NCBI GenBank assembly: GCA_964413735.1
Contig: CAYPSS010000005.1
Coordinates: 4,398 to 68,397, forward strand
DNA from: an uncultured Gammaproteobacteria bacterium
Lineage (GTDB): Bacteria > Patescibacteriota > Patescibacteriia > UBA11705
Reading direction: 5' to 3'
Length of the DNA stretch: 64,000 nt
Both the position numbers and the translations under genes were made by a program. Every line of letters begins with the position of its first letter. Position 1 is the stretch's first letter. Positions 4,544-56,927 of this stretch are shown here, piece by piece. Under the pieces are notes generated by a model. It was not told where the DNA came from, searched no databases, and saw nothing but the letters and a program-made list of their open reading frames with translations.

Positions 4544-4584
4544 CCCGTAACAAGTACGGGGTAAACTTCTCATCCCTGGTATAT

Positions 4585-4624
4585 AAAAAAAGACGAATTT
4601 TCATTCCTCTTTTTTTATGGCTCG
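4585..4624. repeat. 40-bp direct repeat, copy 2
   Basis: Identical to 4353-4392. The two copies bracket the att-core copy at 4522-4543. Confidence 0.8.
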
Positions 4625-4740
4625 CTTGGAGGGACGCCTTTCGAACTTATGATTGGCGCAAGGCATTCCCTGTGCCAGAATTAGCTTTACAACAGATTAA
4701 CCACCTGTGCAGTTTAGCATAAGCTCTTAACTAACATCCT

Positions 4741-5292
4741 ATGCCAAAAGTAGCACAAAGCATTTTCGATGAATATGAAAAATACTACGTCGAGCAAGGA
4801 ATGACCTTGCAGGATGTTGCTTTGGAGTTTGGGCTAAACTACGGTTCTTTGCGCCAGTATTCAATGAAACAGAAATGGTCGGAGAAACAGAAAGAATACA
4901 GGGAAGCAACTCACAAAAAGCTAACACAAATCACTCAAATAAGAATAAACAAAGAAGCTGAGACACTGGATCACAAAAATCTGCGCCGTGCCGTGTATTG
5001 GAGGGCTTTCCAATCAAGCATAATGGATATGTTGGATGCACGTTCTGACGAGCTTAAACCGCAAGAAATAGCTGTTCTTGCAAGTGCCTTTGAGAAGGCC
5101 TGCCGTGGCGAACGTCTTGAAGATGGTCAGGCAGTCGAGATACACAAGGTAGAAACTCCAATTAAGCCCGATGCTGAATGCGCTATGATGGAAGAATATG
5201 AGATGCGCCTATTAAGACAACGGGGAGAAATTAAGAAACTTTCTGACGTGTTAGTAAAAAATAAAATTGATGGGTATTACAAAAATATCTAA
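4741..5292 (+). CDS. Phage terminase small-subunit-like / HTH DNA-binding protein
   Basis: 183 aa. The N-terminal ~60 aa (..QGMTLQDVALEFGLNYGSLRQYSMKQKWSEKQKEYRE) resemble the HTH + basic region of Terminase_2-type small subunits, and the rest is predicted helical/coiled. The similarity is weak. Confidence 0.35.
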   Translation: MPKVAQSIFDEYEKYYVEQGMTLQDVALEFGLNYGSLRQYSMKQKWSEKQKEYREATHKKLTQITQIRINKEAETLDHKNLRRAVYWRAFQSSIMDMLDARSDELKPQEIAVLASAFEKACRGERLEDGQAVEIHKVETPIKPDAECAMMEEYEMRLLRQRGEIKKLSDVLVKNKIDGYYKNI

Positions 5293-5312
5293 AAAACGGC
5301 TTAACGGCCGTT

Positions 5313-5810
5313 TTACTTTTTATAGGGATTTACAAAGGGACTGAAAGGTCTACCAAAATATAATGATAATTTATGACCGAGCCAGTGTCGCCCCAAATCG
5401 TTCAAACATTGTATTCTTTTGTCTTTATCAAGCACGCTTCTCGGCAATGATACTATTCTAGTAAAATCAACATAACTTGCTGGGAAAACACCTTCTTCTG
5501 GCAAGAAAAACCAATATCCATATTTTTGATCTGCCAATTGTGCAAGATCCACCTTTATTTGAGTTTGTTCAAGTTCTTCTACTGTGAGGACAGGGGCAAA
5601 AATTAAAAAATTGCGATTTTTGGGATTGTTAATATCGCAACTCTGGTTAAGAAGCATCATAGTCCGGCTCTGAACGTTGAATATGGACTTGGTTTCGGTT
5701 GCTCCGATTGGGTCAGGTGTAATTATAAAAGGAAGATCTTTTACTATATCACCCTGCAACCATTCATTTGTTGGAAGGTTGCTTGCATACATATAATTAC
5801 TACGTAGCAA
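5313..5810 (-). CDS. Hypothetical protein, last gene of the R-M/protease operon
   Basis: 165 aa with no recognisable motif. It overlaps the upstream 76-aa gene by 11 nt, so it is translationally coupled. Confidence 0.45.
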   Translation of the reverse strand: MLRSNYMYASNLPTNEWLQGDIVKDLPFIITPDPIGATETKSIFNVQSRTMMLLNQSCDINNPKNRNFLIFAPVLTVEELEQTQIKVDLAQLADQKYGYWFFLPEEGVFPASYVDFTRIVSLPRSVLDKDKRIQCLNDLGRHWLGHKLSLYFGRPFSPFVNPYKK

Positions 5811-6030
5811 GACCTAACTTTTTATAATAAGTATCCCAATCCTTAGGCGTTAAATCCTCCGGTTCTTTCTCGATTATTTCAGTCGCATAAACTTCACTGA
5901 TATCAGTAAAATGGACATTTGAGTATTGTTCTGTGGCAGTGAACTCTATGCCAGTTTGTTTAGCTTGAAAAACTTTTTTTTGAGTTTTTTCGTCTACTGG
6001 TTGAGCTTTGCAACTTGTTGAATATAACAT
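5800..6030 (-). CDS. Hypothetical small acidic protein (76 aa)
   Basis: Its stop lies 2 nt after the start of the downstream gene, and its start lies 1 nt after the SDH-protease gene stop. It is operonic. Confidence 0.4.
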   Translation of the reverse strand: MLYSTSCKAQPVDEKTQKKVFQAKQTGIEFTATEQYSNVHFTDISEVYATEIIEKEPEDLTPKDWDTYYKKLGLAT

Positions 6031-6031
6031 A

Positions 6032-6997
6032 TTATTCCCACTTATTATAGAAATTATGTATATTGAAATTAGGTAAAGGTGAATTACCGGGTAATTTCAT
6101 TACTTTATATTTCGAAACAAATTGGTCGGACAATTGTTCGCTCTGGATAATAGCTCTCGTTAAAGAGAAATCCTTTTCAACTTTGTTGCCAAGGAAATCA
6201 GCGGGGTTAAACTCATCATCGAGTTGTAAGATTTTTTTATAATGCATCATTAAATCGTTAATCAGCTTATCGTCTTTTGCATATTCGATTATGTCTCCAA
6301 AACCAATTTCATTTTTGGCTTCTTTTCGGTTGATTAAGTGTTCGTGAGAATATAATTTCTCTGTCAAATGATCGGTAATTTCCTTTAATTGTTTTTCTGT
6401 ATGATGATCTTGGTGTAATTTTAGCATTTGCAAAGACAATCTTCGTATCAGATGATGTGTTCTATTTATGGATCCGAGTATCTTTGGAGGTATGTGCTGG
6501 CTTAATTGATTTAGCACTTCTGTAAGAGAGTTTTGTTCAGCCAAGCCAATCTTTGACTTTGCAAACTCAATATAACCCAAAATATCTTCAATAGGTATTT
6601 GATCCTGTTTGTTTTCACCCATATTATATACACCTATTGGATCTATCGGCGAAAGCTGACTGTATGGCGTCATAATAATCCGGTCTGCCCCGAGGCATAT
6701 AAGGGTAGCGGCACTTAACGCCAAATGAGGAACAACAATTTCGAGTTCGTCGCAGTATTCCCTTATAAGATTAACTAATGGCCAAGGTGTATCTAAACGC
6801 CCTCCCTTACTGTAAAGAAATAGCGTAATCTTTTTTTGTTTTTTGATTTTTTGTAAGTGCTTATAAAAGATAGGCACTATATCCAATGCGATTTGAGTGT
6901 GAAAGTTCGGTTGCTTGTCTCCTGTGATATAAACAATAACCTTGCTTCCTCTCTCTTTTTCTAATTTTTTAATTAGATTTTCTATAATTTTTGACAT
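6032..6997 (-). CDS. SDH/S49-family ClpP-fold serine peptidase (SppA / phage-prohead-protease-like)
   Basis: 321 aa. The N-terminal ~140 aa carry the ClpP/S49 signature block 'YSKGGRLDTPWPLVNLIREYCDELEIVVPHLALSAATLICLGADRIIMTPYSQLSPIDP' (G-G..., a serine in an S-A-A-T-L context, then a '(A)D-x-I-x-M.P.S..PIDP' tail). This is as in Pfam SDH_sah / Peptidase_S49. A helical C-terminal extension of ~170 aa follows. Confidence 0.55.
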   Translation of the reverse strand: MSKIIENLIKKLEKERGSKVIVYITGDKQPNFHTQIALDIVPIFYKHLQKIKKQKKITLFLYSKGGRLDTPWPLVNLIREYCDELEIVVPHLALSAATLICLGADRIIMTPYSQLSPIDPIGVYNMGENKQDQIPIEDILGYIEFAKSKIGLAEQNSLTEVLNQLSQHIPPKILGSINRTHHLIRRLSLQMLKLHQDHHTEKQLKEITDHLTEKLYSHEHLINRKEAKNEIGFGDIIEYAKDDKLINDLMMHYKKILQLDDEFNPADFLGNKVEKDFSLTRAIIQSEQLSDQFVSKYKVMKLPGNSPLPNFNIHNFYNKWE

Positions 6998-7049
6998 ATT
7001 AGATTATTATATCCCTATATAATTATTATATTATAATGATAAAAAGACA

Positions 7050-8189
7050 TCAATCGCCAGCTTCGTCGTTTTCAAACTCCTCAAAGGAGCCGATTTTAGT
7101 GAAATCTATATCGTATTTTTTCTCTCCGACTTTGTAAATCACAACGCTGTCGACGCCTATTTCTTCCAGTTTTTCATAAGTGAGAAGCTCTCCTTCTTTT
7201 AAGTCGAAGATTTCCCTCAACAGCCACTTGCCAAGATCTGCGTTATGCTTGCTCATAAGCGCTTTGGAACCGTCTTGGCACACTTTTGCCTCCATCTTTT
7301 CTCCATTTGGCAAAAGCAATTCAAAATGAGTGTCTCTCGGAGGAAAGAAATCGGGGAAAGATCTGTGTAGCCACGCAGGGATAGGAATATAAACTTCGTT
7401 CGGATCTCTTGGGCGTCCGGATGCATTCCACTGATTAAGCCCGCTCTTTTCCGGAACATTCTTTTCACCGCCACGCATAGAATAAAGTGGAAGAAAAATA
7501 TGCGCCTGTTTCTTTATCGGTGCAAACTCTAATTTTTTAGCAACAGTAGCAAACATTCTTTCTAATTCAGAGAAAGGATCTTCCAGTATAGCTACTGACA
7601 AATCGAGAGCGACTTCTGGGGTTATAAATCTTTTATACAGGGTGCTTTTAGCAACATTAAAAGCATATTCATTGATGCCGTCGGTAAATGCTATTGTATT
7701 TCCGTTTGAAAGTTTTATGCGTGATATTTTATCAATCGCTATTCTGTCCATCGGAGTTTCATATACAAGTATGTTTTTTGGCTTTCTCGTGACGCAGTGA
7801 TAAATGATGTCGTTCAACCCAAACATTCTTTTGGTAGTATCTATTCTTTTATTGCGCATCTCTGCGATTTTTACGATCTTTTTTTCAGGATCAAGATGGC
7901 GGAATAAAGAATGCTCGCTGTTGAACTCGGCCACTTTCTGCATTGTGGCGCCGTTTTTTTCAAGAAATGTTTTTACGCCGATGCCGAGTTTGTCTTTTGA
8001 TGCATCTGCCGAACAGTCCGTGCGTGAAAGGTTCTCTGCATCAAACGCTTTGCAGAATAGATTTTCAGCAACCCTATAAGCAATATAAGGTTCATTGCTT
8101 TCTGAAAAAAGGCGTGAGAGCGAACCTATTGTTTCCAGCATCTTTGCGTAGTAGGTTTTGCTCGCTGTTTTTTGTGTTTCTATAAACAT
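7050..8189 (-). CDS. Putative Type II restriction endonuclease (partner of the adjacent C5-methyltransferase)
   Basis: 379 aa with no conserved-family motif that I can name. Its start is 2 nt downstream of the methyltransferase stop on the same strand, the classic M-R operon layout. Confidence 0.45.
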   Translation of the reverse strand: MFIETQKTASKTYYAKMLETIGSLSRLFSESNEPYIAYRVAENLFCKAFDAENLSRTDCSADASKDKLGIGVKTFLEKNGATMQKVAEFNSEHSLFRHLDPEKKIVKIAEMRNKRIDTTKRMFGLNDIIYHCVTRKPKNILVYETPMDRIAIDKISRIKLSNGNTIAFTDGINEYAFNVAKSTLYKRFITPEVALDLSVAILEDPFSELERMFATVAKKLEFAPIKKQAHIFLPLYSMRGGEKNVPEKSGLNQWNASGRPRDPNEVYIPIPAWLHRSFPDFFPPRDTHFELLLPNGEKMEAKVCQDGSKALMSKHNADLGKWLLREIFDLKEGELLTYEKLEEIGVDSVVIYKVGEKKYDIDFTKIGSFEEFENDEAGD

Positions 8190-8190
8190 A

Positions 8191-9144
8191 TTATGCTTGT
8201 ATAGCTTTCTTCATATTCACCGCAATGCGGTAAATGACCGGCACTGAAACCGAATTGCCGAATTGTTTATATAGCGCCGAGTCAGTAATGTTTTTAGGCA
8301 GTTTTATATTGGCAAACCCTTGCAATTTTGCGCATTCTTTTGGGGTTAATTTGCGGATGCCTTTTGCGTCCTTTATGATCGGAACGTTATGACCTCCCAT
8401 CCCCATATTCGCAGTAAGGGTCGGGCAAACTCCTTTTTTGTTTTCTCTAACATAAACCCTGCGCCACTGATAGACAGTGTTTTGGGATTTTATCTGTTCT
8501 TTCAGTTTATCGTATAACGGTTTGCCTTCATAGTAGTATTTTTCCGGGACGTCTTTTTCAAGAATATCTTTTATGCTTTTAGTAAGGGCGATTTTTTTTG
8601 GAAAGGAAAAAACATCATAGGATTTTTTCGACTTAAATCCAACAATATAAACACGCTCCCTGTTTTGAGGGACGTTGCCGTATTCCATTGTATTTAGTAT
8701 TTCAGTTTTGATGTGATAGCCCAGCTTTTCAAGCTCTGCTTTAATAACTTTGAAGGTGTTGCCTTTATCGTGAGAGTAAAGATTTTTTACATTTTCAAGC
8801 AAAAGTGCAGGAGGATTTTTTTCCTTCAAAATCCTGATAATATCCCAAAATAAGTTCCCACGGTTAGTATCTGAAAATCCTTTTCTATAACCTGCAATAG
8901 AAAATGGCTGACAAGGAAACCCTCCAAGAAGGACGCCGAACTTTTTAGGCAAATCGCTTGTCTTTACTTTTGTAATATCTGCAACGTGCAGTTTTGGTTC
9001 AGGAAAATTAAGATCGTATGTTATCTTGCAATTCGGTTCGAAATCATTTGCGTATAGCGTAGTGAAGCCGGCCTTCTCAAATCCTGCTCGAATACCGCCT
9101 ATTCCGGCGAAAAGATCAATGGTTGTTAAATCACTTTTTTGCAT
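8191..9144 (-). CDS. DNA (cytosine-5)-methyltransferase
   Basis: Motif I 'DLFAGIGGIRAGF', motif IV 'GGFPCQPFSIAG', motif VI 'ENVKNL' and motif X 'QFGNSVSVPVI' are all present. Confidence 0.9.
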   Translation of the reverse strand: MQKSDLTTIDLFAGIGGIRAGFEKAGFTTLYANDFEPNCKITYDLNFPEPKLHVADITKVKTSDLPKKFGVLLGGFPCQPFSIAGYRKGFSDTNRGNLFWDIIRILKEKNPPALLLENVKNLYSHDKGNTFKVIKAELEKLGYHIKTEILNTMEYGNVPQNRERVYIVGFKSKKSYDVFSFPKKIALTKSIKDILEKDVPEKYYYEGKPLYDKLKEQIKSQNTVYQWRRVYVRENKKGVCPTLTANMGMGGHNVPIIKDAKGIRKLTPKECAKLQGFANIKLPKNITDSALYKQFGNSVSVPVIYRIAVNMKKAIQA

Positions 9145-9447
9145 AATAAAAATTGGGTAAGTTTCGTGGTTATATTATACCTTGTTTAGGCCTGCATCGC
9201 AAGGCAAAATCTCATTGCAAAAAAGGCCTTGGTTTGTTATAATAATAGCGCTTACCCACAATCAATATAAATTATAACACGGGAAACGGGGTTCTGCCTC
9301 TCTTTGTCTGTTTGCGGCCAGAGATGGGGCAACAAACCTCCACAAACAGACACTCCCGTGTTTGCAACAGTGGGTAAGCAGGTTCTGCTGCCCCTTTTTT
9401 GTTTGTCTAAAAAGTCGGCGCAGTTTAATTATTAACTTATATAATTT

Positions 9448-10026
9448 ATGGCCGGCCTTTTCGCAATAATACTGCTTATAGCGTGTATTTTGCTCATCCT
9501 TGGGCTTATACAGCCCAAACTTGCCTTATACTGGGGCAAACACAAAAATCGTAAGCAAGTAGGAATAATTTACGGTTCACTCATCGCTGTATCCTTCATA
9601 GGCATCGGCATATTTGCACCTCCCGTTGAAAAAAAAGAATTGCCGAAAGAAGAAGAAAAACAACAAGTAGTTGATCAGCAAGTTCAAGTGTCCGTTGAAG
9701 ATAAACAGGAAGAACCTGAACAGATAAATCCAGAAGTAGAAAAGCTCGATGTGTGGGAGAAAATAATAATATCATTTGACGGGGGTTATTCCAAAAAAGA
9801 AATAAAAGAAAAAATGGATTTGGCAATGACCCTTTACGGGGTAGATCTTACTGATGAAAATTACAGCCGAACCGCAAGTTCGTTGATTTCTATGCGCCGG
9901 GAATATGGCTTCGAAGAAATGGAGATACTTAACTATGCAATATCTCTTTACACTCCAAAAGTTAAAATGACGTTGCCTGACGCAATCGGCATAGCAACTG
10001 CGGCTCTTGTGCAAGGAATAAAATAA
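9448..10026 (+). CDS. Hypothetical membrane-anchored protein
   Basis: 192 aa with two N-terminal TM helices, then a charged E/K/Q-rich linker and a C-terminal globular region. Confidence 0.45.
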   Translation: MAGLFAIILLIACILLILGLIQPKLALYWGKHKNRKQVGIIYGSLIAVSFIGIGIFAPPVEKKELPKEEEKQQVVDQQVQVSVEDKQEEPEQINPEVEKLDVWEKIIISFDGGYSKKEIKEKMDLAMTLYGVDLTDENYSRTASSLISMRREYGFEEMEILNYAISLYTPKVKMTLPDAIGIATAALVQGIK

Positions 10027-10101
10027 CAAAAACGCCGGCGAAAAGCCGGTTGTTTTTATACCCGATGAAAGGTATAATTATAGGCAAGAAGTGATGAAAC
10101 T

Positions 10102-10818
10102 ATGAAAGAAACAAGATCCTTTGCGCAGACACAGGAAAGATGGAAGCGCATTATCGAACACGACGTGTTCAAACACAATTTAGAGATTGTTAGGCAAGAT
10201 AAAGGCAAAATATCTTGGGCTGTTGCAGATACCCGAAAGAAACTAAATCTTTCTCCATATTGGGAGATGTTTTTTCTTCCTTTAAGTTTCGAATTAGGAT
10301 ACCCTATACCAAAAATCCGTCCGGCAGGTGCTTTGTATTTTAAGCCATTACTTGATCCAAAAACAGGGAAAATTATATACCCTGCGTTTATCTTTCCTGA
10401 AACCACAAAAAGAGATGTGTTGAGTTTTTATAAACGTTTTTGCAAAGTGAAGCGAGAAATAGGAAAAGAAGAAATACATCATCAAGGCAACTTGCCTTTA
10501 ATAAAAGCAGGAAAAGATATTATTACTCACAACTATTATTTTCAGGTTATACCGACCTCAAAGACAACACGGAAATCTATGTTAGAGGCATATTCAAATA
10601 TCTCAAAGTATTATGAGGCGTGCGGTCAAAAAGTCGTAAAAAGAAAATCGAGCAGACACGAAGAAGAATACCTTGCAAAGATGTTGTCCGAAGAAAAATA
10701 TACCTATTCTTATATAGCAAAAATTATTAACCAAAAAAGATCCAAGGATAACAGAATAGGCGTAGAAAATGTTTCATCTCTCATAAGGGGTGCAAAAAGA
10801 AAGCAAAAGAAACTCTAA
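10102..10818 (+). CDS. Hypothetical protein with a C-terminal HTH-like basic region (possible replication/regulatory protein of the element)
   Basis: 238 aa. The C-terminus '..YSYIAKIINQKRSKDNRIGVENVSSLIRGAKRKQKKL' resembles an HTH/DNA-binding tail. There is no firm family assignment. Confidence 0.4.
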   Translation: MKETRSFAQTQERWKRIIEHDVFKHNLEIVRQDKGKISWAVADTRKKLNLSPYWEMFFLPLSFELGYPIPKIRPAGALYFKPLLDPKTGKIIYPAFIFPETTKRDVLSFYKRFCKVKREIGKEEIHHQGNLPLIKAGKDIITHNYYFQVIPTSKTTRKSMLEAYSNISKYYEACGQKVVKRKSSRHEEEYLAKMLSEEKYTYSYIAKIINQKRSKDNRIGVENVSSLIRGAKRKQKKL

Positions 10819-10841
10819 AATGAACCCGCCAGAGGACTAAT

Positions 10842-11150
10842 TTGAACAATCAAAAAAATGATATGCTCATCACAGATAACGTGATGAGCTTTTTTATGAA
10901 AACAAAAATTGATGAAATTGAGTTTATTCCAGTAAAGCCCAAAAACGGCCTAATAGGTTTCGTTTCTTTTGTGCTTGATGAAAAGCTGTATTGCAGTTCT
11001 ATCGGCGTGCATACGAGGCCACAAGGCGGTATACGGCTTGTCTGGCCTCTGACAAGAACCGGAATGAAGGCAGTTTACCCGATTTCAAAGGAGCTATATT
11101 TTGAGACAGAAATTGCCGTAGCAGATAAAGTTCAAAGTTTTTTACAATAG
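10842..11150 (+). CDS. SpoVG-like protein
   Basis: 102 aa. The pattern 'IDEIEFIPVKPKNGLIGFVSFVLDEKLYCSSIGVHTRPQGGIRLVWPLTR...KAVYPISKE' parallels the SpoVG consensus (V.V.......GL.A.AS...D..F.V..I.V....GLFVAMPS.R...G...D.AHPI). Phage-borne SpoVG homologues are known. Confidence 0.4.
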   Translation: MNNQKNDMLITDNVMSFFMKTKIDEIEFIPVKPKNGLIGFVSFVLDEKLYCSSIGVHTRPQGGIRLVWPLTRTGMKAVYPISKELYFETEIAVADKVQSFLQ

Positions 11151-11405
11151 ACAGCCAAGACCGGCTTTTTAGTGGAGATCCGGGATAACAACTTAACCCT
11201 ACCGACAGTGCTTTACGCACGGGAGAGATAACTCGCTATGAAGGGCATAGCGGGGACAGATTGGCGGGCAGATCAATGTGGGAGCTACGCAGGCGTGCGT
11301 CTCCCGACCTAATCTGTTCGGCAGTTTTCTAACTTTAAGATTGTCTGCCTTACATAAGCTAATAATAGCTAAACAGGAAGTGTTTAGGGATCAAAACGCA
11401 TAAGT

Positions 11406-11618
11406 ATGACTATTGGTATTACAAAAAGTGAAAAAAATGTGCTGGGCGAGGAAAAGCCAAGAAACCACTATGATAGGCAATATCCGGCAGTAAGTTTTAG
11501 GATTGATCCAAAAACCAAGGAGATATTGCAATCAATAAAATCCGATCTTGGTAAAAGTTGGAACCAAACTTTCCTGCAACTTGCTCGTCTGTATAGCAAA
11601 AATCAAAAAGCTAAATAA
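11406..11618 (+). CDS. Small ribbon-helix-helix-like DNA-binding protein (candidate repressor or recombination directionality factor)
   Basis: 70 aa. 'AVSFRIDPKTKEILQSIKSDLGKSWNQTFLQLARLY' fits the beta-strand + two-helix CopG/Arc pattern. It lies just upstream of the integrase. Confidence 0.35.
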   Translation: MTIGITKSEKNVLGEEKPRNHYDRQYPAVSFRIDPKTKEILQSIKSDLGKSWNQTFLQLARLYSKNQKAK

Positions 11619-11633
11619 TTTTAATAAACGAAA

Positions 11634-11801
11634 ATGATCAGCCAAGCTCTAATACAAGAATTGAAGCAGATCCTCAAAGAAGAATACGGGGCTGATTTGA
11701 CTATGGAGCAAGTTTCAGAAATAGCGAACGGACAAGTCGCTTATTATCGCACGCTCGCTGAAATATACATTCGAGACAAACAAAAAATTGACAGTTCATA
11801 A
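11634..11801 (+). CDS. Small hypothetical protein (55 aa) absent from the ORF track (below its length cutoff)
   Basis: The uninterrupted reading ATG..TAA gives 'MISQALIQELKQILKEEYGADLTMEQVSEIANGQVAYYRTLAEIYIRDKQKIDSS'. It sits between the RHH gene and the integrase, with a TTGACA..TATAAT-like promoter for int immediately after it. Confidence 0.3.
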   Translation: MISQALIQELKQILKEEYGADLTMEQVSEIANGQVAYYRTLAEIYIRDKQKIDSS

Positions 11802-11858
11802 TCAAAATCTCTCCTTTAATTTAAGCAACTAATTTGATATAATTAACATAAGAAGTGT

Positions 11859-13481
11859 ATGAAACTACAAACACAACACAACCAAAAGCACTCTGTCATT
11901 TTGGCCAGAGTGTCGTCAAAAGAACAAGAAGAAACCGGATATTCTTTGCCAGCGCAGGAGAAATTGCTTCAAGATTATGCAGATAGAAAGCAGATGAACG
12001 TAAAAAAGGTTTTTTCGATAGCAGAGACAGCAAGCGGTTCAAAACAGCGTGAACAATTTTACGCTATGCTTGAATATGTCAAAAAACATAAAATCAACTG
12101 CATCCTTGTTGAGAAAGTAGACCGTCTGACAAGAAATATGCGTGATGCTCTCGTAGTCAATGAATGGATACAAGAAAATCCGAGCCACCAAGTCCATTTT
12201 GTGAAAAACAATCTTGTAGTAGACCAAAATACAAGATCCGACGATACTTTCAAATGGGACATCGAAGTTATTTTGGCAAAAAAGTATACTGCAAATCTTT
12301 CGGAAGAAGTAAAAAAAGGCCAAGAGGAAAAAATACAACAAGGCGGTTATCCTTCTCGTCCTCCTCTTGGATATAAGACAATCGGAGAAAAAGGCAGAAA
12401 GATGCACGTTATAAATCACGATATTGCGCCTTTAATCAGAAAGACCTTTGAATTGTATTCATCGGGTAATTATTCAGTAAAAGAATTAGTTAAAGTAATG
12501 AAGCGAGAGGGATTGCGAAACGAAAGCGGAAGCGAAGTTAAAAAAACTACAATGCACCGCCTTCTGACCAATCCATTTTACTACGGACAATTTAACTGGA
12601 ATGACAAGCTATGGGACGGCAAACACGAACCTATAATCACAAAGGAATTATTTGATCAGGTGAAAAGTAAACTCGAACGCAAAACTTCCAGTCCTACATA
12701 CAGAAAACATAATCCTGTTTTCAAGGCGGTTTTTCATTGCGGAGAATGTGGAAGCGTAATTAGCTGGGAAACACACAAAGGTCACTGGTATGGCTGTTGT
12801 AAGCATTACAAGCCCTGTTCTCAAAAAGGATCATTGCGGGAAGAAGATGTTGAAAAACAGCTTATGCCTCATTTTGATACGATTGCCCCGAAGAACGAAC
12901 GAGTTGTTAAGTGGCTCGAAAAAGCATTGAAGTCCGATCAAGCTGACGTCGTTGAAACCCACAACGCAAAAAAGAAAGAAATGAATGCCCAGATTGAAAG
13001 ATTGGACAGGCGTCTTGATGCAATGTATATGGACAAAATTGATCAGAAGATTGATTTGGATTATTACGAAAAGAAAAAACAGGAGTTTGAGGAGGAACGC
13101 AGTGCAATAAAAAGCGAACTCGCCAGATTGGATGACAGCAAAGCAGAATACTACGCAGTAGGAATTGCTATACACGAACTCGCACTTAAAGCGTGGAAGA
13201 TCTACAACAGCGAGAAAGCAACGATTGAAGAAAAGAGATTGCTTTTGAGCTATGTATTTTCGAACTCAACCATTAAAGAGCGAAAGTTAGCCATAAACTA
13301 CACTTTTGCCTTTGATTTTCTTCAAAATTGGATGCCGGCTGTAAATAAAACTTTCGAACCGGCAAAACTTGGCTTAACTAAAACAAAAAACACCTCTGAA
13401 AAAGAGATGTGTTCTGTTTGGCTCGGGGACAGGGATTCGAACCCCGATAGCCAGGACCAAAACCTGGAGTCCTACCATTAG
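11859..13481 (+). CDS. Large serine recombinase / serine integrase
   Basis: 540 aa. It has an N-terminal resolvase/invertase catalytic domain ('VILARVSSKEQEETGYSLPAQ', catalytic Ser), a recombinase domain, a zinc-ribbon Cys cluster (CGECGSV...CCKHYKPC) and a C-terminal coiled coil. The last ~20 codons are read from the complement of tRNA-Gln. Confidence 0.9.
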   Translation: MKLQTQHNQKHSVILARVSSKEQEETGYSLPAQEKLLQDYADRKQMNVKKVFSIAETASGSKQREQFYAMLEYVKKHKINCILVEKVDRLTRNMRDALVVNEWIQENPSHQVHFVKNNLVVDQNTRSDDTFKWDIEVILAKKYTANLSEEVKKGQEEKIQQGGYPSRPPLGYKTIGEKGRKMHVINHDIAPLIRKTFELYSSGNYSVKELVKVMKREGLRNESGSEVKKTTMHRLLTNPFYYGQFNWNDKLWDGKHEPIITKELFDQVKSKLERKTSSPTYRKHNPVFKAVFHCGECGSVISWETHKGHWYGCCKHYKPCSQKGSLREEDVEKQLMPHFDTIAPKNERVVKWLEKALKSDQADVVETHNAKKKEMNAQIERLDRRLDAMYMDKIDQKIDLDYYEKKKQEFEEERSAIKSELARLDDSKAEYYAVGIAIHELALKAWKIYNSEKATIEEKRLLLSYVFSNSTIKERKLAINYTFAFDFLQNWMPAVNKTFEPAKLGLTKTKNTSEKEMCSVWLGDRDSNPDSQDQNLESYH

Positions 13482-13492
13482 ACGATCCCCGA
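13419..13492 (-). tRNA. tRNA-Gln (anticodon UUG)
   Basis: The reverse complement folds as a cloverleaf. The acceptor stem is TCGGGGA/TCCCCGA. The D-arm is GTCT-AATGGTA-GGAC. The anticodon stem is CCAGG/CCTGG with loop TTTTGGT, giving anticodon TTG. The T-arm is CGGGG-TTCGAAT-CCCTG. The discriminator is G and CCA is encoded. Confidence 0.85.
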
Positions 13493-13535
13493 ATAATGTT
13501 TGAATTGTAAGGATCGTCGTTATAAGTCCATTACT

Positions 13536-13660
13536 TGTCCACCGTAGCTTTAGCGAAGGTGGAGCTAAGTTCACCGTAGCTTTAGCGAAGGTGAAACGAT
13601 CCCTGCCTACTCGTCTCGCCACACGGACGAAGCGGACCAGCAGGCAGACCTGTCCGACAA
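13536..13660. repeat. GC-rich structured region flanking tRNA-Gln. It contains a tandem 22-nt repeat (caccgtagctttagcgaaggtg, two copies) and a hairpin element homologous to 54750-54797.
   Basis: Copies of the 22-mer lie at 13540-13561 and 13571-13592. Segment 13591-13645 (ccctgcctactcgtctcgccacacggacgaagcggaccagcaggcagac) is about 85% identical to the reverse complement of 54752-54797. Long-range pairing GGATCGT/ACGATCC encloses the whole block. Confidence 0.6.
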
Positions 13661-13755
13661 AGCATCAAGCGAAGGCGGGCCTGAATAATCAAAATTGTAT
13701 AACCTTAGACTATCATAGATAAATACATTCGTCAATATCAAACTGGTGATATTTT

Positions 13756-51185: not shown

Positions 51186-51380
51186 AAATGTTTATTTTTA
51201 ATATTATAGCACAATAAAATTTTTTTAAAAAATTTAAATTCTTTCATACAAATAAAAATCGGCAAGCCCTAATATCCACAATATGAAATTTTCCCACTAT
51301 CAAAGATGACGGGCTATAAACATTATATTTCAACCAACTTGAATTTATTAAGAAATTTTCAAACACATAGCAATATTCAA

Positions 51381-51462
51381 ATAATTCTTGGCTCCCCGAC
51401 CAGGATTCTCCGCCGGAGGCGGATGCGCCTTTGGCGCAGAACCCTCGAGGGTTTTTACGCCC
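51381..51462. repeat. GC-rich cluster of three consecutive palindromic hairpins (CCGCC-gga-GGCGG, GCGCC-ttt-GGCGC, AACCCTCGAGGGTT) beginning with a tRNA-3'-end-like 'tggctccccgacc'
   Basis: Seen directly in the sequence. It lies immediately left of the start of duplicated segment A. The track ORF 51244..51468 across it is judged spurious. Confidence 0.5.
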
Positions 51463-51798
51463 TGCCACGTTAACAGCGCAGTGTTATACCAATTTTACTA
51501 TCAGGGATTAATATAAATAAAACAACCGGCTTCTACGCCGGCCTTTTTGTTATCTAGATCAGACAAAATAATCAAGCCGACGCTAACCGGTTATTATTAT
51601 TGTTTGATTGGATACCTCTGATTATCATATGATTTAATTATAGCACACTTTGAATAAAATGTCAAATAAAAAACCGATTGTATAACAATCGGTCAAATTA
51701 ATATCAGGCAAAAACGACTAACACAAAGAACCGTTCAAAATAATGATAAATAAAATCTGCGTAGCGAATAGGCAATCTTTCTTTTTTCTTTCGTCAGC
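51463..51798. repeat. Duplicated non-coding segment, copy A (upstream part of the NUDIX module). Includes two terminator-like hairpins.
   Basis: Near-identical to 54904-55096 plus 55430-55566 (for example 'cacgttaacagcgcagtgttataccaattttactatcagggattaatataaataaaacaaccggcttctacgccggcc', 'ccgattgtataacaatcggtcaaattaatatcaggcaaaaacgact.acacaaagaaccgttcaaaataatgataaataaaatctgcgtagcgaataggcaatctttcttttttctttcgtc'). Confidence 0.8.
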
Positions 51799-51926
51799 GT
51801 TTCATATTCGCCCTCTTGGTAAAGGATTTAACTCAAATCATTATCAGGATTAATTAGCAATGTTAACAAATTATTATATTTTTGTCAAACATAAAACAGA
51901 CCTTCGAAGATCTGTTTTAATGTATT

Positions 51927-52448
51927 TTACAAGTAAAAATATTTCACGATTTTTAATAAGTCACTCTTGGCTTTTTCACCGGCCTCTATCTTTTCCCTCA
52001 ATTTTTCCGGTGTTAGCCAATAATATTCAATAAAATCATCCGGGTTAAAATTCGGCGCTTCATCAGACTGAATCTCATAAATTTGCATAAAGGCGGAAAC
52101 TTGATTTTCATGCGGTATTAACTTACCTAATAATTTCCAAGAAACTTGATTAATATCAATATTTAATTCCTCAGCCGTTTCTCGCTCAAAAGTTGTCTGA
52201 TAATCCTCCCCACTTTCCACATGACCACCCACACTCATATCCAGACATAATGGATAAATCCTCTTATTCGCTGTACGACGCGGAATCCACAATTCGCCCT
52301 TAGAGTTTTTCACAAAAGCATTAATTACCCGAAAATTGGATAAACCTTCTGCATAAATCTCAGATCTCAATTTTTTTCCAATTACTTGATCATGTTCATT
52401 TACTAAATCTAGCCATTCATCTTGCATATAAAAAATTAGTAAAGGCAC
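51927..52448 (-). CDS. NUDIX hydrolase (copy A of a duplicated gene)
   Basis: It has the Nudix box 'GGHVESGEDYQTTFERETAEELNI'. It is about 95% identical to the ORF at 56219..56719. Confidence 0.8.
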   Translation of the reverse strand: MPLLIFYMQDEWLDLVNEHDQVIGKKLRSEIYAEGLSNFRVINAFVKNSKGELWIPRRTANKRIYPLCLDMSVGGHVESGEDYQTTFERETAEELNIDINQVSWKLLGKLIPHENQVSAFMQIYEIQSDEAPNFNPDDFIEYYWLTPEKLREKIEAGEKAKSDLLKIVKYFYL

Positions 52449-52539
52449 TTTGAATAAAAAACTTGCAAACTTATAAATTAATAATGGTGCGTTTATTTAA
52501 CGAAATCCGAACCTTTTTTGAACAAAACTAATGACTCGC

Positions 52540-52670
52540 TTCGCGCGCCAAACTGAACGATCGGGCGGGCAAAAAGGAAGGGAGTTTGGGGGAAGGAATT
52601 TTTGTTTGTTTTTGTTTTCCACTGCCGCCGAATTTCGTGCCAACGAAGTTGGCGCGCCGCCATCTTAAAT
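52540..52670. repeat. GC-rich inverted-repeat element (ttcgcgcgccaa ... ttggcgcgcc, with an inner GCCAAC-gaa-GTTGGC hairpin)
   Basis: Seen in the sequence. It is a marked GC island between NUDIX copy A and the 3' end of the 536-aa gene. Confidence 0.45.
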
Positions 52671-52694
52671 TACATTAACTCGTTAAACACAAAG

Positions 52695-54305
52695 CTATCC
52701 CAAAGCACTGATGGTCTTTTCAATTCTTTCTTGTAGTGTTCTGTCGTAATAAACATTAGCACCGTTAATTTCCATGAAATTTAATAATTTAGCAATTTTT
52801 TTGTCGGGTTCATAAATTCCTCTAGGTATTGGGACTTTCCTTTTGGTTTCTGACCTATCAGATTTTTCGAAATTTATATTTTCGATTCTATAACGACCTT
52901 CATAGTCATATCCTTCATCAAAACTTACCGTAAGTGATTCTCCACCAACATGGACGATTGTAAATGTGCCTTTTTCTTGACTATTCAAGGCTAATTGTGC
53001 AAGTTCCTTTTCACTTAGAGATGCAAGGTCAGCGCTCAAAGCCTTATTCGCGAGTTCTAAAGCATTTAACACTTGCTTCTTTTGTTCTGGTGTAAAAGAA
53101 TCAATTTGTTCTGAGAAATTTTCTAGTCTTTTTTCTTCCAAAGTATCTATCGCTGATTGGAGCGTTGCCTTCGTTTCATCTTTCCGGATGAGTTCAGGAT
53201 AATTTTCCGAGCGAAAATCAAATGACGCTAACCGAGCCCTCAGAAATCGTATAGCTCCCAATAAATAAGCTTGCGTTGCATCTTTAATTTCCTCAACCGT
53301 CATTGGTAGTGGCCAGCCCACTGCTTCCGCAGCTTCAACAGAAGCAAAAGTTTTGCCTTTTCCTTGCATTTCTCTCAAGGAAACAAACGATGTTCCAGTC
53401 CAAACCTTACGATCCTCAATAGCTTTTTGCAATTCTCCATCAACATCCTTCGCAACATGCTCTGCAAATTTATTCGGTCCTAGAATTTCGAAAAATGCCC
53501 TACAGCGGGGATTCATATCGATCGAACTATCATAAAAACCCTCTAATTCTAGTTTCAATTTTCGGACATCTGCTGTATCATCATTAGCAATACTAATTGC
53601 GTATTCTTTTCCAAATAAATCTCTAACCAATTCATAGTTCAATCTTTCCTGGTGGATAGCATCTTTAGCGAAATGCCAATCCCGGACCTTTACACCTCTA
53701 TAATCCTCTGTAACTCTCGGCTCAAGATAGCTTTTTACTTGAGCTAGAATGATATCACGATCCACACCTTCCACAGAGGAAGCTGTTCTTAAAAGTAGAT
53801 TCGTCTTAAATGATGATTGATCACCATCGCTGGTTGGTAAGTTTTTGACTATCTCCACAATTTCGCTTGAATGCCCGTGACCCGCCATTTCTTGAGCGAG
53901 TTGTTCTAACGCGCGCCTGAAATGCTCAAATGAATCGTTTGGCCGACTATCATAGTAAAAATAGGTGTCTGCTGCATATAGTGCAAACTCCTTAGCTTTA
54001 TTGGGATCGGTTTCATATAGCTGTGTAGCCTTTTCGGCAAATTCTGCATATAGTTCTGCGTATTCTTCCTCTTGTTTATAGTACAAACCAGATTGATACA
54101 GTTCGCTCAATACTTCGCCCCCTTCTTCATAAAATTTTTCGTTCTCTTCCCAATGTTTTCGTGCAAGATTTTCTAATCTTGCATTTATTTCCCCAACAAT
54201 AATTGCGCGCCTTTCAGATAATTCTATTTGTTCCGGCGTCATCATACCCTCGGCTTTTTTAATTTCTTTTTCGCTTGATTGATAGCCCTCTGGTGATTTT
54301 GGCAT
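52695..54305 (-). CDS. Orphan 536-aa protein of unknown function, conspicuously GC-richer than the surrounding genome
   Basis: Long uninterrupted ORF with codon structure and predicted mostly helical. It has no motif I can assign. It lies downstream of a decayed XRE-HTH gene and between the two copies of the duplicated NUDIX module. Confidence 0.55.
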   Translation of the reverse strand: MPKSPEGYQSSEKEIKKAEGMMTPEQIELSERRAIIVGEINARLENLARKHWEENEKFYEEGGEVLSELYQSGLYYKQEEEYAELYAEFAEKATQLYETDPNKAKEFALYAADTYFYYDSRPNDSFEHFRRALEQLAQEMAGHGHSSEIVEIVKNLPTSDGDQSSFKTNLLLRTASSVEGVDRDIILAQVKSYLEPRVTEDYRGVKVRDWHFAKDAIHQERLNYELVRDLFGKEYAISIANDDTADVRKLKLELEGFYDSSIDMNPRCRAFFEILGPNKFAEHVAKDVDGELQKAIEDRKVWTGTSFVSLREMQGKGKTFASVEAAEAVGWPLPMTVEEIKDATQAYLLGAIRFLRARLASFDFRSENYPELIRKDETKATLQSAIDTLEEKRLENFSEQIDSFTPEQKKQVLNALELANKALSADLASLSEKELAQLALNSQEKGTFTIVHVGGESLTVSFDEGYDYEGRYRIENINFEKSDRSETKRKVPIPRGIYEPDKKIAKLLNFMEINGANVYYDRTLQERIEKTISALG

Positions 54306-54418
54306 ATTTTCCTTCCCTTTTCTTATATGGCGTTCGCCAATTTCGAAAAGTTAAATGAAGTTAATAATTATTAACCAGTTTGATTACTTGTAGTTTACCC
54401 CCCCAACACTTTTTACAA

Positions 54419-54646
54419 TAGCCATAGTTATTTAACAAATCCTCTATGTTAACATTAAGCGCTTTAGCAATCTTTGCCATAGTTTGGACGCTTTACTTAT
54501 TCACTGTGCTGCTTTCGACCTTCATAAGCGTTGTGTATTTTATATCCGCTTTCTTGGTTAAATCGTCTTGCGTCAAGCCAAGTTTAGTGCGGAGTTTCTT
54601 AATGTTTTTGCTGATAATTTTTCCACTTGTTATATAAATAAAGTTT
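54419..54646 (-). pseudogene. XRE-family (Cro/C1-type) HTH regulator gene interrupted by an in-frame TAA and lacking an ATG start
   Basis: The minus-strand translation '..GKIISKNIKKLRTKLGLTQDDLTKKADIKYTTLMKVESSTVNK*SVQTMAKIAKALNVNIEDLLNNYG' follows the canonical XRE HTH pattern (..L..LGLTQ..LA.K.G.S..T...E.G...PS...L.KIAKAL.V..D.L). The stop replaces the residue before the conserved S/L-E-T-L block. The track ORF on the plus strand here (54446..54637) is spurious. Confidence 0.5.
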
Positions 54647-54749
54647 TAGCAGTATTATAGTATATGCGTTTGTTATCTGTATTTTAATATTACCAAATAA
54701 AATAAAATTAGACAAACAAAATTTCTGAAAGTTTAATTCTGATGCCCAA

Positions 54750-54797
54750 GAGAGCCTGTCTGCCGGTCCGCTTCGTCCGCGAAGCGAGACGAGCAGA
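54750..54797. repeat. GC-rich two-tier hairpin (CCTGTCTGC-cggtc-CGCTTCG-tccg-CGAAGCG-agacga-GCAGACAGG), homologous to 13591-13645 in reverse complement
   Basis: Perfect nested inverted repeats seen in the sequence. About 85% identity to the tRNA-Gln-flanking element. Confidence 0.6.
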
Positions 54798-54875
54798 CAG
54801 GGACTTCCTTCGCTTCACTCAGGATAAACTTTTCGTCCTATTATGTGTATTCCTATTATTATTCAATAATGGTGC

Positions 54876-54905
54876 CCAGGAGAGGACTCGAACCTGGAAC
54901 TCCAC
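54876..54905 (-). other. tRNA 3'-end-like fragment (CCA/discriminator/acceptor 3' strand/T-loop, no 5' half): candidate att remnant
   Basis: The plus strand 'tggtgcccaggagaggactcgaacc' is the reverse complement of a canonical tRNA 3' terminus (GGTTCGAGTCC TCTCC TGGGCA CCA). No matching acceptor 5' strand or anticodon arm follows. It abuts the left boundary of duplicated segment B. Confidence 0.5.
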
Positions 54906-55096
54906 GTTAACAGCGCAGTGTTATACCAATTTTACTATCAGGGATTAATATAAATAAAACAACCGGCTTCTACGCCGGCCTTTTGTTATCTAGATCAAAC
55001 AAAATAACCAAGCCGACGCTAACCGGTTATTATTATTATTTGATTTGATCACTCTGATTATCATATGATTGCATTATAGCATACTTTGAATAAAAT
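54904..55096. repeat. Duplicated non-coding segment, copy B (part 1)
   Basis: Matches 51463-51660. Confidence 0.8.
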
Positions 55097-55429
55097 GTCA
55101 AACAAAAAACATCCTCTCGTTGGCGGATGCTTTATTACTTTCATTCAATCACCAACTTTACGACGGTGACCAAGGGGGCGAAATGACAATGATGGGACCA
55201 ACCGATGATCTAATTTAGACTTTGTTTCTGGATCGACTAATTCATCGTCAATCGCCAAAGACAGCAAATGATCACCACAACGATAAAATCGTTTACGCTT
55301 ATCAGCCTGCAATGCTACTGGTGGATCATCTAATGGAGCACAAGAACAGCCCCGATGCTTAGACATTGTTATTCTCCGATAAAGAACCTACTAGTAAATT
55401 AACATAAATCATCATTAAAAAGCAAATTA
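55097..55429. mobile_element. ~330-bp insertion specific to copy B, flanked by an 11-bp direct repeat (aaacaaaaaac). It carries a small gene and its own terminator.
   Basis: Copy A is contiguous across this point ('tgtcaaataaaaaaccgattgtataacaatcgg'). Copy B has 'tgtcaaacaaaaaac|atcctctcg...ggaaacaaaaaac|cgactgtataacaatcgg'. Confidence 0.45.
55145..55366 (-). CDS. Small GC-rich hypothetical protein (73 aa) inside the copy-B insertion
   Basis: 'MSKHRGCSCAPLDDPPVALQADKRKRFYRCGDHLLSLAIDDELVDPETKSK...'. It is followed on the minus strand by the hairpin GCATCC..GGATG plus T6 (55100-55135), a terminator. It has a weak Trm112/zinc-ribbon-like look only. Confidence 0.35.
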   Translation of the reverse strand: MSKHRGCSCAPLDDPPVALQADKRKRFYRCGDHLLSLAIDDELVDPETKSKLDHRLVPSLSFRPLGHRRKVGD

Positions 55430-55566
55430 TCGGAAACAAAAAACCGACTGTATAACAATCGGTCAAATTAATATCAGGCAAAAACGACTGACACAAAGAA
55501 CCGTTCAAAATAATGATAAATAAAATCTGCGTAGCGAATAGGCAATCTTTCTTTTTTCTTTCGTCG
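55430..55566. repeat. Duplicated non-coding segment, copy B (part 2)
   Basis: Matches 51662-51798 with 1-2 substitutions. Confidence 0.8.
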
Positions 55567-55585
55567 CCGACGCATCAACACCATC

Positions 55586-56098
55586 TCAGATCTCCTTTGG
55601 TTGAGGTGATTTATTCCATAATTCATCAAACTGTTCTTGAGTCAAATAAATATCGGCTTTTTGCAATAGTTCATAACAAGGATACCAAAGTGAGCACATT
55701 AACAACATGTTCACATCTTCATTAATCATTCTCTTAACAGCTTTAAAAATTCGACGGTGGACATTAATTGAGACAAGTTGGTATTTCACAGCCATTGCAG
55801 TAGAATTGTTACTTGCAATAATGAATTGCACCTTACTAAGGGGTAAAGTAGTAATAATCATTTTTTGACGATCAAAGGTCCAAATAACCTGAATTTTTTG
55901 TTCAATATTTAAGCTACCCGATGAACCTTGAAATGTTCCAGTCTCTAAATTTCCACTACCAAGAGATAAAATTTGGACATTAACCACCTGAAATGGTTGA
56001 TCCATGTTATTTTGAATCCACAAAGTCTGAAAAGTATTGATTTTCATGCACCCGGAAAAAATCATTACAACCATCAATATTCCCAACTTAAATTTCAT
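55586..56098 (-). CDS. Putative lipoprotein, specific to copy B
   Basis: The start is taken at the internal Met, giving 'MKFKLGILMVVMIFSGC' (signal peptide + lipobox-like FSGC). The track ORF extends to 56170. Confidence 0.4.
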   Translation of the reverse strand: MKFKLGILMVVMIFSGCMKINTFQTLWIQNNMDQPFQVVNVQILSLGSGNLETGTFQGSSGSLNIEQKIQVIWTFDRQKMIITTLPLSKVQFIIASNNSTAMAVKYQLVSINVHRRIFKAVKRMINEDVNMLLMCSLWYPCYELLQKADIYLTQEQFDELWNKSPQPKEI

Positions 56099-56218
56099 AG
56101 TGCCTCCCATTGGGAAAGGACATAAAAAGAACTTGATGGTAGATATTAACACAATTCCAGGAAAAGTCAATAGTAAAAAATGGGCATTTAACCCATTTAA
56201 TTAGTATCTAAATTTTGA

Positions 56219-56719
56219 TTAAGAGTAAAAATATTTCACTATTTTCAATAAATCACTCTTGGCTTTTTCACCGGCCTCAATCTTTTCCCTCAATTGTTCC
56301 GGTGTTAACCAATAATATTCAATAAAATCATCCAGGTTAAAATTCGGCGCTTCATCAGACTGAATCTCATAAATTTGCATAAAGGCGGAAACTTGATTTT
56401 CATGCGGTATTAACTTACCTAATAATTTCCAAGAAACTTGATTAATATCAATATTTAATTCCTCAGCCGTTTCTCGCTCAAAAGTTGTCTGATAATTCTC
56501 ACCGCTTTCCACATGACCACCCACACTCATATCCAAACACAATGGATAAATTATTTTGTGTGCTGTGCGTCGGGGAATCCATAATTCACCCTTAGAATTT
56601 TTCACAAAAGCATTAATTACGCGAAAATTAGACAAACCTTCCGCATAAATCTCCGATCGTAATTTCTTCCCAATTACTTGGTCATTTTCATTAACCAAAT
56701 CAAGCCATTCGTCTTGCAT
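56219..56719 (-). CDS. NUDIX hydrolase (copy B)
   Basis: It has the Nudix box 'GGHVESGENYQTTFERETAEELNI'. It is near-identical to 51927..52448 (the copy-A ORF has a 7-aa longer N-terminus). Confidence 0.8.
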   Translation of the reverse strand: MQDEWLDLVNENDQVIGKKLRSEIYAEGLSNFRVINAFVKNSKGELWIPRRTAHKIIYPLCLDMSVGGHVESGENYQTTFERETAEELNIDINQVSWKLLGKLIPHENQVSAFMQIYEIQSDEAPNFNLDDFIEYYWLTPEQLREKIEAGEKAKSDLLKIVKYFYS

Positions 56720-56927
56720 ATTTTGATATAAATTGATTTAAATCTGATTACCAAACCACATTAAAATTATCTTTAATATTACAATATATTATTTCCCGTA
56801 TTTTATCAAATATTCACTTAAAATAAAATATTTTCCACTAATTAAGCCCTGATTATTTAATAAAATTTCCTTTTTGATATTTGAAAATAAAGATGTATAC
56901 TGGTTATATCTATAACTATCAAATAAT

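Follow-up and report, generated by a model that had tools for sequence, protein, structure and literature searches.

Strain variation at a split tRNA-Asn gene beside diverged NUDIX repeats in a genome of probable Patescibacteria type

The window analysed here is a 64-kb stretch of a metagenome-assembled contig, and our statements on the tRNA genes and long repeats present in this genome refer to these 64 kb. Our subject is a locus near its distal end, where two diverged copies of a NUDIX gene, each with associated non-coding DNA, bracket other cargo and lie next to the pieces of a tRNA-Asn(GUU) gene. The GC content of the window is 36%, and the closest NUDIX relatives occur in genomes labelled Lloydbacteria, Paceibacteria, Parcubacteria and Minisyncoccia; on these grounds the host is most likely a low-GC bacterium of the Patescibacteria type (candidate phyla radiation, CPR). 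For comparison we relied on the metagenome contigs L007, L013, L016 and L017, of which L013 and L017 come from other samples. Logan contigs are k=31 assemblies, in which joins through repeats are less secure. From the resident NUDIX gene down to the far side of the tRNA remnant, the locus comprises the following features, where nc1 and nc2 denote the non-coding blocks shared by the copies and ORF an open reading frame.

56219-56719, minus strand: NUDIX_B, the resident copy, adjoining a glycosyltransferase operon (PF00293, E = 1.7e-11)
55586-56098, minus strand: lipoprotein-like gene with a MKFKLGILMVVMIFSGC signal and lipobox and no Pfam family
55434-55585, minus strand: nc1 of copy B, which includes an intrinsic terminator (55442-55464; terminator scan)
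55111-55433, minus strand: block missing in copy A, with a Cys-rich ORF of 73 amino acids (aa; 55145-55366) that has its own terminator
54945-55110, minus strand: nc2 of copy B, with a promoter (55101 to 55073), a structured leader or small RNA of about 115 nt and a hairpin/terminator (54961-54980)
54870-54944, minus strand: chimeric tRNA of copy B, tRNA-Asn(GUU) positions 1-58 joined in the T-loop to a tRNA-Leu 3' end (GUCCUCUCCUGGGCACCA)
54738-54816, no strand: GC-rich palindrome, with 53 nt of flank up to 54869, adjoining the tRNA-Leu end
54364-54633, minus strand: XRE-family helix-turn-helix (HTH) pseudogene, with ATG changed to ATA and an in-frame TAA at 54493-54495
52695-54305, minus strand: ORF536, an intact cargo gene, 99.4% identical in L007
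52449-52694, no strand: spacer that includes GC-rich stretches at 52530-52665 and, at 52485-52490, TGGTGC, possibly the 6-nt remnant of a tRNA end
51927-52427, minus strand: NUDIX_A, the second, diverged copy, linked to ORF536 (PF00293, E = 1.4e-12)
51817-51926, minus strand: region 3' of NUDIX_A, with the NUDIX_A terminator, a promoter-like TTGACA and, in degenerate form, what is left of the 3' end of the lipoprotein gene
51508-51816, minus strand: nc1 and nc2 of copy A, joined directly without the 73-aa block, with a promoter (51665 to 51637), a structured leader and a hairpin (51524-51543)
51388-51507, minus strand: insert-bearing tRNA-Asn remnant of copy A, with a perfect acceptor stem in its fold (z = -3.4)
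51188-51387, no strand: AT-rich spacer down to a 78-aa ORF, with a strain breakpoint at 51187

Both repeat copies are in direct orientation. The repeated segments are the NUDIX gene (51932-52429 versus 56224-56721, 92.2% identity over 498 nt), nc1 (51664-51795 versus 55434-55565, 97.7%) and nc2 (51465-51674 versus 54902-55110, 94.8%), whose leading 83 nt are 100% identical (51465-51547 and 54902-54984). Exact repeats of 83 nt and 162 nt are present between the copies, and at their junction lie 2.4 kb of other DNA, including the foreign tRNA-Leu end. Apart from a 42-nt pair near 4.4 kb, the window contains no further long repeats. The duplication proposed in the initial annotation of this DNA stands; its description as near-identical is too strong for the NUDIX pair, since NUDIX_A and NUDIX_B differ at 41 of 501 nt and about 7 residues, with a nonsynonymous divergence (dN) of 0.02 and a synonymous divergence (dS) of 0.45. 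All genes of the locus lie on the minus strand, and the shared non-coding DNA, earlier placed upstream of the NUDIX genes, is thus 3' of them. Both proteins pass the Pfam gathering score of 21.1 (48.2 bits for NUDIX_A, 44.7 for NUDIX_B), and the Nudix box GHVESGEDYQTTFERETAEELNI is legible; some sources label the relatives isopentenyl-diphosphate isomerase, and the function here is putative. NUDIX_B holds the same position in L013, beside a GT2 gene.

In both copies a perfect sigma70 promoter (12/12; TTGACA-17-TATAAT with TG) precedes the tRNA on the minus strand (54945-55101 and 51508-51665). It is followed by a strongly structured RNA of about 115 nt (fold z = -5.6 in copy B and -4.5 in copy A), which ends in a hairpin with a T-tract directly before the tRNA, has no Rfam family and may represent either a small RNA or the leader of the tRNA. 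Rfam returned only sub-threshold matches on the non-coding blocks (MicF, Hrs13), which we rejected as terminator-driven.

The repeat boundary at 54902 falls within the tRNA-Asn(GUU) gene that ARAGORN calls at 54870-54944. Positions 1-58 of tRNA-Asn occupy 54887-54944, and the last 25 nt (GGUUCGAGUCCUCUCCUGGGCACCA, 54870-54894) are the 3' end of a tRNA-Leu. The fusion scores 23.7 bits with Rfam RF00005, against a threshold of 29, and contains five mispairs, three in the acceptor stem and two in the T-stem. In 28 viral contigs the same 25 nt end either a full tRNA-Leu (18 ARAGORN calls) or partial att-like copies. The tRNA 3'-end fragment recorded earlier is hereby identified as that of tRNA-Leu. 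What the initial annotation termed "tRNA-like att fragments" can be named more precisely, as a real tRNA-Asn gene that is split in its T-loop and a tRNA-Leu 3' end; that the repeat ends within tRNA-Asn had been overlooked.

The missing tRNA part is found at copy A, which consists of positions 1-43 (51465-51507), a 57-nt insert made of small GC-rich hairpins (51408-51464) and positions 57-76 (51388-51407). In this 3' part (GAAUCCUGGUCGGGGAGCCA) the acceptor strand forms perfect pairs with the 5' strand, and G73 and CCA come after it. No tRNA is called here by ARAGORN, nor by Rfam at E values up to 10. The insert has no second copy in the window at three or fewer mismatches, which rules out a dispersed hairpin element. 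When positions 1-56 of copy B are joined to positions 57-76 of copy A, a canonical tRNA-Asn results. The 20-mer GAATCCTGGTCGGGGAGCCA occurs in at least 120 metagenome contigs, 96 of them with a tRNA-Asn(GUU) called by ARAGORN, and CCAGGTTC stands directly 5' of it in 108 of 114 contigs. Copy B has the same sequence after position 43, and its positions 44-56 agree with natural tRNA-Asn genes. Three further contigs are broken at the same point, with unrelated DNA abutting GAATCC, and a metagenome scan with the 38-nt 5' part of tRNA-Asn gave zero matches. The canonical rejoined molecule and its match to natural tRNA-Asn genes show that one ancestral tRNA-Asn(GUU) gene has been split in the T-loop between C56 and G57; it follows that everything from 54887 to 51407 lies inside tRNA-Asn.

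Every tRNA-Asn allele observed is non-canonical, namely copies A and B of the window and that of L017, which has a single unit, and the window contains no further tRNA-Asn. With all observed alleles broken, a working tRNA-Asn most likely lies elsewhere in the genome, and both remnants are probably non-functional. The 5' acceptor strand reads TCCTCGA in L017 (about 1434-1440) and TCCCTGA in the window (51501-51507 and 54938-54944); both variants pair with UCGGGGA via a G-U/G-C swap.

The genes found only in copy B are old. L013, which is about 89% identical to window positions 60215-55087, has the order glycosyltransferase operon, NUDIX, terminator, lipoprotein gene, nc1, 73-aa ORF with its terminator, nc2, and L017 (about 98% identical) has the same gene order. 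The lipoprotein gene is present in L013 (173 aa) and is 100% identical in L017. As both contigs carry them, the lipoprotein gene and the 330-bp block with the 73-aa ORF are ancestral at the copy B position, and copy A has lost both genes. What the initial annotation had called private insertions of copy B do exist as a 330-bp and a lipoprotein indel, as does the accompanying 11-bp repeat, but they occupy the same place in L013 and L017 and are not insertions. Copy A retains a remnant that aligns with the C-terminal region of the lipoprotein, and the NUDIX_A terminator and TTGACAAAA are common to copy A and L013. The 11-bp repeat AAACAAAAAAC represents the T-tracts of two successive intrinsic terminators, both of which are present in L013, so that a target-site duplication is ruled out. 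The 73-aa block is bounded by these 11-nt T-tracts, and in the simpler reading it would have been lost from copy A by recombination between them. Its ORF (CSC...YRCGDH) is kept by purifying selection in three samples, with a dN/dS of 0.15-0.5, and belongs to no family of Pfam, PADLOC or PHROGs.

Of the cargo between the copies, the XRE regulator is indeed decayed, as was noted at the outset: relative to the intact 68-aa homologue in L008 (HTH_3/HTH_31 on record) the start codon is lost and the in-frame TAA replaces a Pro codon. The same defects are present in L007. ORF536 is a near-orphan, with 7 relatives among 1.84 billion representatives; homologues at 44-48% identity sit behind an intact XRE gene, and the XRE partner is always present in the relatives. 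ORF536 has no family in four libraries, including Pfam, PADLOC and PHROG, and zero matches in phage, plasmid and IMG/VR collections. Its AlphaFold model is of low confidence, with a predicted local distance difference test (pLDDT) score of 57, and in the PDB Foldseek matched it only to generic helical repeats (E > 0.01, template-modelling score < 0.25), none of them significant. The gene had also been described as GC-rich and foreign, which does not hold. Its GC content of 0.389 ranks 11th among 55 genes (mean 0.365, standard deviation 0.030) and its third-position GC (GC3) of 0.296 lies under the mean, an ordinary composition for the window; GC-rich DNA in the locus is limited to short non-coding hairpins.

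The GC-rich palindromic elements reported earlier are present, the one at 54738-54816 having paralogues at 13600-13647 and at 6284-6370 of L007. The family, about 81-87% identical, comprises 13530-13683 (upstream of tRNA-Gln), 54738-54816 (beside the XRE pseudogene) and the L007 element. In a distantly related groundwater organism (L008, also L009-L012) the homologous XRE-ORF579 pair lies between perfect GC-rich inverted repeats of 106 nt (52-157 and 2459-2564 of L008); these repeats end the contigs, which suggests an invertible or mobile cassette, or a repeat-limited assembly. The "aataaTGGTGC" repeats at 52480 and 54865, part of a 20-nt similarity between the region at 52471 and 54856-54875 (17/20), were rejected as att sites, since a match of this grade in AT-rich DNA is estimated to arise many times by chance in 10 kb.

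Exact-protein look-ups of NUDIX_B, ORF536, P0004, the 78-aa ORF and the 73-aa ORF gave zero matches, as did those of two spurious junction-spanning ORFs. The GTDB relatives L001-L006, with NUDIX identities of only 61-67% and no tRNA-Asn close by, are uninformative on synteny. L017 has a single unit and is without the roughly 3.44-kb segment. From the NUDIX 3' end it follows copy B across the lipoprotein gene, nc1 and the 73-aa ORF into the beginning of nc2: between 56334 and 55082 all 77 informative sites have the copy B base. From 55072 onwards its base is mostly that of copy A (exceptions 55071 and 54998). The switch thus falls at about 55072-55082, in the -10 box of the leader promoter. L017 then runs past tRNA position 43 into the copy A insert (CAGGGCGTAAAAACCCTCGAGG) through the same junction as copy A. 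Near the switch no 31-mer is common to copies A and B, so the L017 junction is not a k=31 artefact of window-like copies. The window and L017 are thus one reciprocal homologous exchange apart; it is situated in nc2, away from the tRNA junctions, and accounts for the gain or loss of about 3.44 kb. L017 is not the pristine state before integration, because its tRNA already carries the insert.

Other strains differ elsewhere. L007 is 99.4% identical to window positions 54801-51884, from the palindrome across the XRE pseudogene and ORF536 to NUDIX_A and its terminator; past the palindrome it enters dnaX and further genes that the window lacks, with a breakpoint at about 54801-54820, the edge of the GC-rich palindrome. 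This dnaX junction is less secure, as it involves a GC-rich repeat family in a k=31 assembly. L016 matches the window at 99.1% identity below 51187 but is unrelated to it beyond that point. Its positions 1-355 contain another gene and a spacer directly upstream of the 78-aa ORF, so the tRNA-Asn locus is not adjacent there, and this foreign left part has zero matches in the window and the other contigs. The proposals that direct repeats flanking the cargo drive its gain or loss, and that the locus is a mosaic accessory region, are therefore well supported: the unit is absent from a close relative, a recombinant junction of the kind that the initial annotation suggested looking for is present in L017 as a B-to-A switch inside the repeat, and close strains also differ at 51187 and at about 54820.

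The two copies do not share a simple history. In the NUDIX gene dS is 0.45 between A and B and 0.33 between B and L013, which would place the split of the A lineage before that of the window and L013. In the first 125 nt, B equals L013 at all 18 sites where A (and L007) differ, and over nt 1-200 there are 29 differences between A and B and 18 between B and L013. Copy A is, by these two criteria, not a recent local duplicate. In nc1 the pattern is reversed, with A and B 97.7% identical and L013 and A 88.6%; the copies are mutually closest only in nc1 and nc2, not along their whole length. Such a mosaic suggests that the resident copy and one of other ancestry have undergone recombination or gene conversion, and it does not fit a single duplication with steady divergence afterwards. 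The simple local segmental duplication of the initial annotation is hence contradicted by the start of the NUDIX gene, where A is the outgroup to B and L013.

With a probability of roughly 0.6, we consider the locus a strain-variable islet at the tRNA-Asn gene of a low-GC, small-genome, CPR-like bacterium of groundwater type that was formed as follows. An element with a tRNA-Leu-derived attachment site would first have integrated off-target, by site-specific recombination, into the T-loop of tRNA-Asn, and its recombinase would later have been lost. A second copy of the NUDIX-leader-tRNA(1-43) unit may have come from a related lineage through flank capture or a circular intermediate, this A-type copy entering by Campbell-type homologous recombination. 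Today, an approximately 3.44-kb circle would be gained and lost by ordinary homologous recombination, with no dedicated recombinase. The 3.44 kb between the tRNA pieces hold the XRE pseudogene, ORF536, palindromes and the second NUDIX-leader-tRNA(1-43) copy, and the 5' piece of tRNA-Asn is completed by the foreign tRNA-Leu 3' end, an att-type fragment as in tRNA-targeting elements. The T-loop is an established sublocation for integrase targeting (PMC1762012). By analogy, the off-target integration step gains support from the island at the tRNA-Gln gene of the same window, where the att repeat starts at T-loop G57 and a GC hairpin abuts it. So understood, the locus belongs to a known, well-documented kind of variable islet at tRNA genes and involves no new mechanism.

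Several observations weigh against this reading. No recombinase gene, remnant or domain was found in the ORFs between 51.2 and 56.9 kb, the sole recombinase of the window being that at 11859-13481, beside tRNA-Gln. The tRNA 3' segments at the two unit ends, Leu and Asn, are different sequences, not copies of one another, and have only GGUUCGA in common; the same segment is not repeated at both ends, as it would be in a classical att duplication. An accident at the GGUUCGA microhomology alone, with no integrase, could account for the Asn::Leu fusion. The model leaves the Asn(1-43)|CAGGGCG... junction, also present in L017, unaccounted for, and the change between L017 and the window seems compatible with integration as well as with deletion. 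L007, with XRE-ORF536-NUDIX_A beside dnaX, fits only if that junction arose by an independent rearrangement or is a k=31 join across a GC repeat. Finally, where the contig passes through the exact repeats of 83 nt and 162 nt, its path is as given by the assembly.

A plain local segmental duplication is unlikely; here, unequal crossing-over would have duplicated the NUDIX-to-tRNA unit within this lineage, and the copies would later have diverged, with two genes lost from copy A and cargo inserted between the two. The direct orientation of the copies, the lipoprotein remnant in copy A and non-coding blocks that at 95-98% identity are nearer to each other than to L013 (88.6%) would all be expected of it, but the 18 shared B-L013 sites and the dS values imply an A lineage older than the split of the window from L013, and a simple tandem duplication would have left an intact tRNA, whereas the tRNA 3' of copy A is broken and a foreign tRNA-Leu end stands at the duplication junction. 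We regard an assembly artefact as rather improbable too. The 83-nt and 162-nt exact repeats in a metagenome-assembled contig could have merged an L017-like single-unit chromosome with a separate molecule of about 3.4 kb, and the alternative pairing of the repeats yields exactly such a chromosome and a 3,437-bp circle. However, L007 independently joins ORF536 to NUDIX_A across the 162-nt repeat, in L017, as in the window, the insert-bearing tRNA end follows an A-type distal nc2, and 150-nt reads span the 83-nt repeat; moreover, all junction sequences must exist in nature, and the biology, integrated versus excised, would be the same either way.

That the 3.4-kb unit is still an active mobilisable element, moved at the tRNA T-loop by a recombinase acting in trans such as that at 11859-13481, is very doubtful. 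The att repeat of the tRNA-Gln island starts at the same T-loop G57 and is abutted by a GC hairpin, like the Asn remnant, yet the two ends of the unit (the Asn::Leu junction and the hairpin joined to Asn 57-76) share only about 7 nt, the exchange in L017 lies about 130 nt away in nc2 rather than at the tRNA junctions, and the XRE regulator is a pseudogene. Least of all do we expect that 51388-51507 yields a working tRNA-Asn whose 57-nt GC-rich insert is removed, intron-like, or tolerated, as would apply if the genome had no other copy. Its perfect acceptor stem with G73 and CCA, its intact D and anticodon arms, the perfect promoter upstream, the CT-to-TC acceptor change of L017 that keeps pairing with UCGGGGA and the lack of another tRNA-Asn in the window would suit such a molecule; against it, the 5' strand of the T-stem and the variable loop are replaced, so that no canonical T arm can form, the missing positions 44-56 are found in copy B and point to rearrangement, and the window shows only 64 kb of the genome. 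We know of no bacterial mechanism for removing a short insert at this tRNA position. Were it true, the locus would represent an undescribed bacterial way to remove or tolerate a structured insertion of about 57 nt in the variable/T-arm region. A real surprise would arise only if a broken tRNA-Asn functions, which is unlikely.

The islet that we favour resembles several known systems in part. Campbell-type recombination integrates and excises DNA between direct repeats, and specialised transducing phages such as lambda gal/bio capture flanking DNA. As in such recombination, the unit here is bounded by repeats, present or absent through a single reciprocal exchange within the repeat, and carries a copy of host flank; unlike lambda gal/bio, it has no phage or plasmid functions, and the capture step is one we infer. 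Integration into the T-loop is reportedly "class II" in the classification of Williams (2002). Mycobacteriophage Ms6, for instance, integrates in the T-loop of tRNA-Ala (PMC1762012). As in T-loop-targeted islands and prophages of this type, the break lies in the 7-nt T-loop, the inserted DNA supplies a tRNA 3'-end fragment and the insertion varies between strains; here, in contrast, the 3' end comes from another tRNA (Leu), the target is not restored, no integrase is present, and the duplicated part is the tRNA 5' part with about 1 kb of upstream flank instead of a 3' att core. Asparagine tDNA is a genomic-island hotspot in Klebsiella pneumoniae (PMC4891358), where tRNA-Asn is likewise a site of repeated island gain and loss, but those islands span tens of kb and have integrases and intact att repeats, whereas ours is a decayed 3.4-kb remnant in a CPR-type genome. 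Fragments of tRNA genes from integrated elements are miscalled as tRNA genes (PMC9897764), as ARAGORN does here at 54870-54944 for a chimera below the Rfam threshold; unlike simple partial copies, this one fuses two different tRNAs. Small streamlined genomes with strain-specific DNA at one tRNA-like gene have similar arrays of repeat remnants, also seen at tRNA-Gln in the window, but their islands keep recombinases and restore the target gene.

The locus thus shows, through independent metagenome contigs, the remodelling of a very small genome of the host-dependent type. Its tRNA genes act as landing sites where decayed cargo is left behind, and recombination between captured flanks moves a 3.4-kb unit among strains that are about 98-99% identical. 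As the tRNA-Asn reported by ARAGORN is an Asn::Leu fusion, tRNA inventories of metagenome-assembled genomes can err both ways.

The second tRNA-associated island of the window spans 8.9 kb at tRNA-Gln (about 4544-13438, within a locus at 4351-13492). Its att sites are a 20-nt direct repeat, TGGCTCGGGGACAGGGATTC, at 4524-4543 and 13419-13438, which corresponds to tRNA positions 57-76. The annotated features are:

13419-13492, minus strand: tRNA-Gln
11859-13481, plus strand: large serine recombinase, at the end of the island and overlapping tRNA-Gln
8191-9144: C5 methylase, in the island
7050-8189: NgoFVII-like restriction enzyme, in the island
6032-6997: SDH/ClpP-like protease, in the island

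Between two small ORFs of this island lies a GC-rich, apparently structured non-coding block of 93 nt (11232-11324), which has no Rfam match at the gathering threshold. Older remnants of the tRNA-Gln att sequence occur at 4386 (12 nt) and 4618 (7 nt), and a perfect 42-nt repeat is found at 4351-4392 and 4583-4624.

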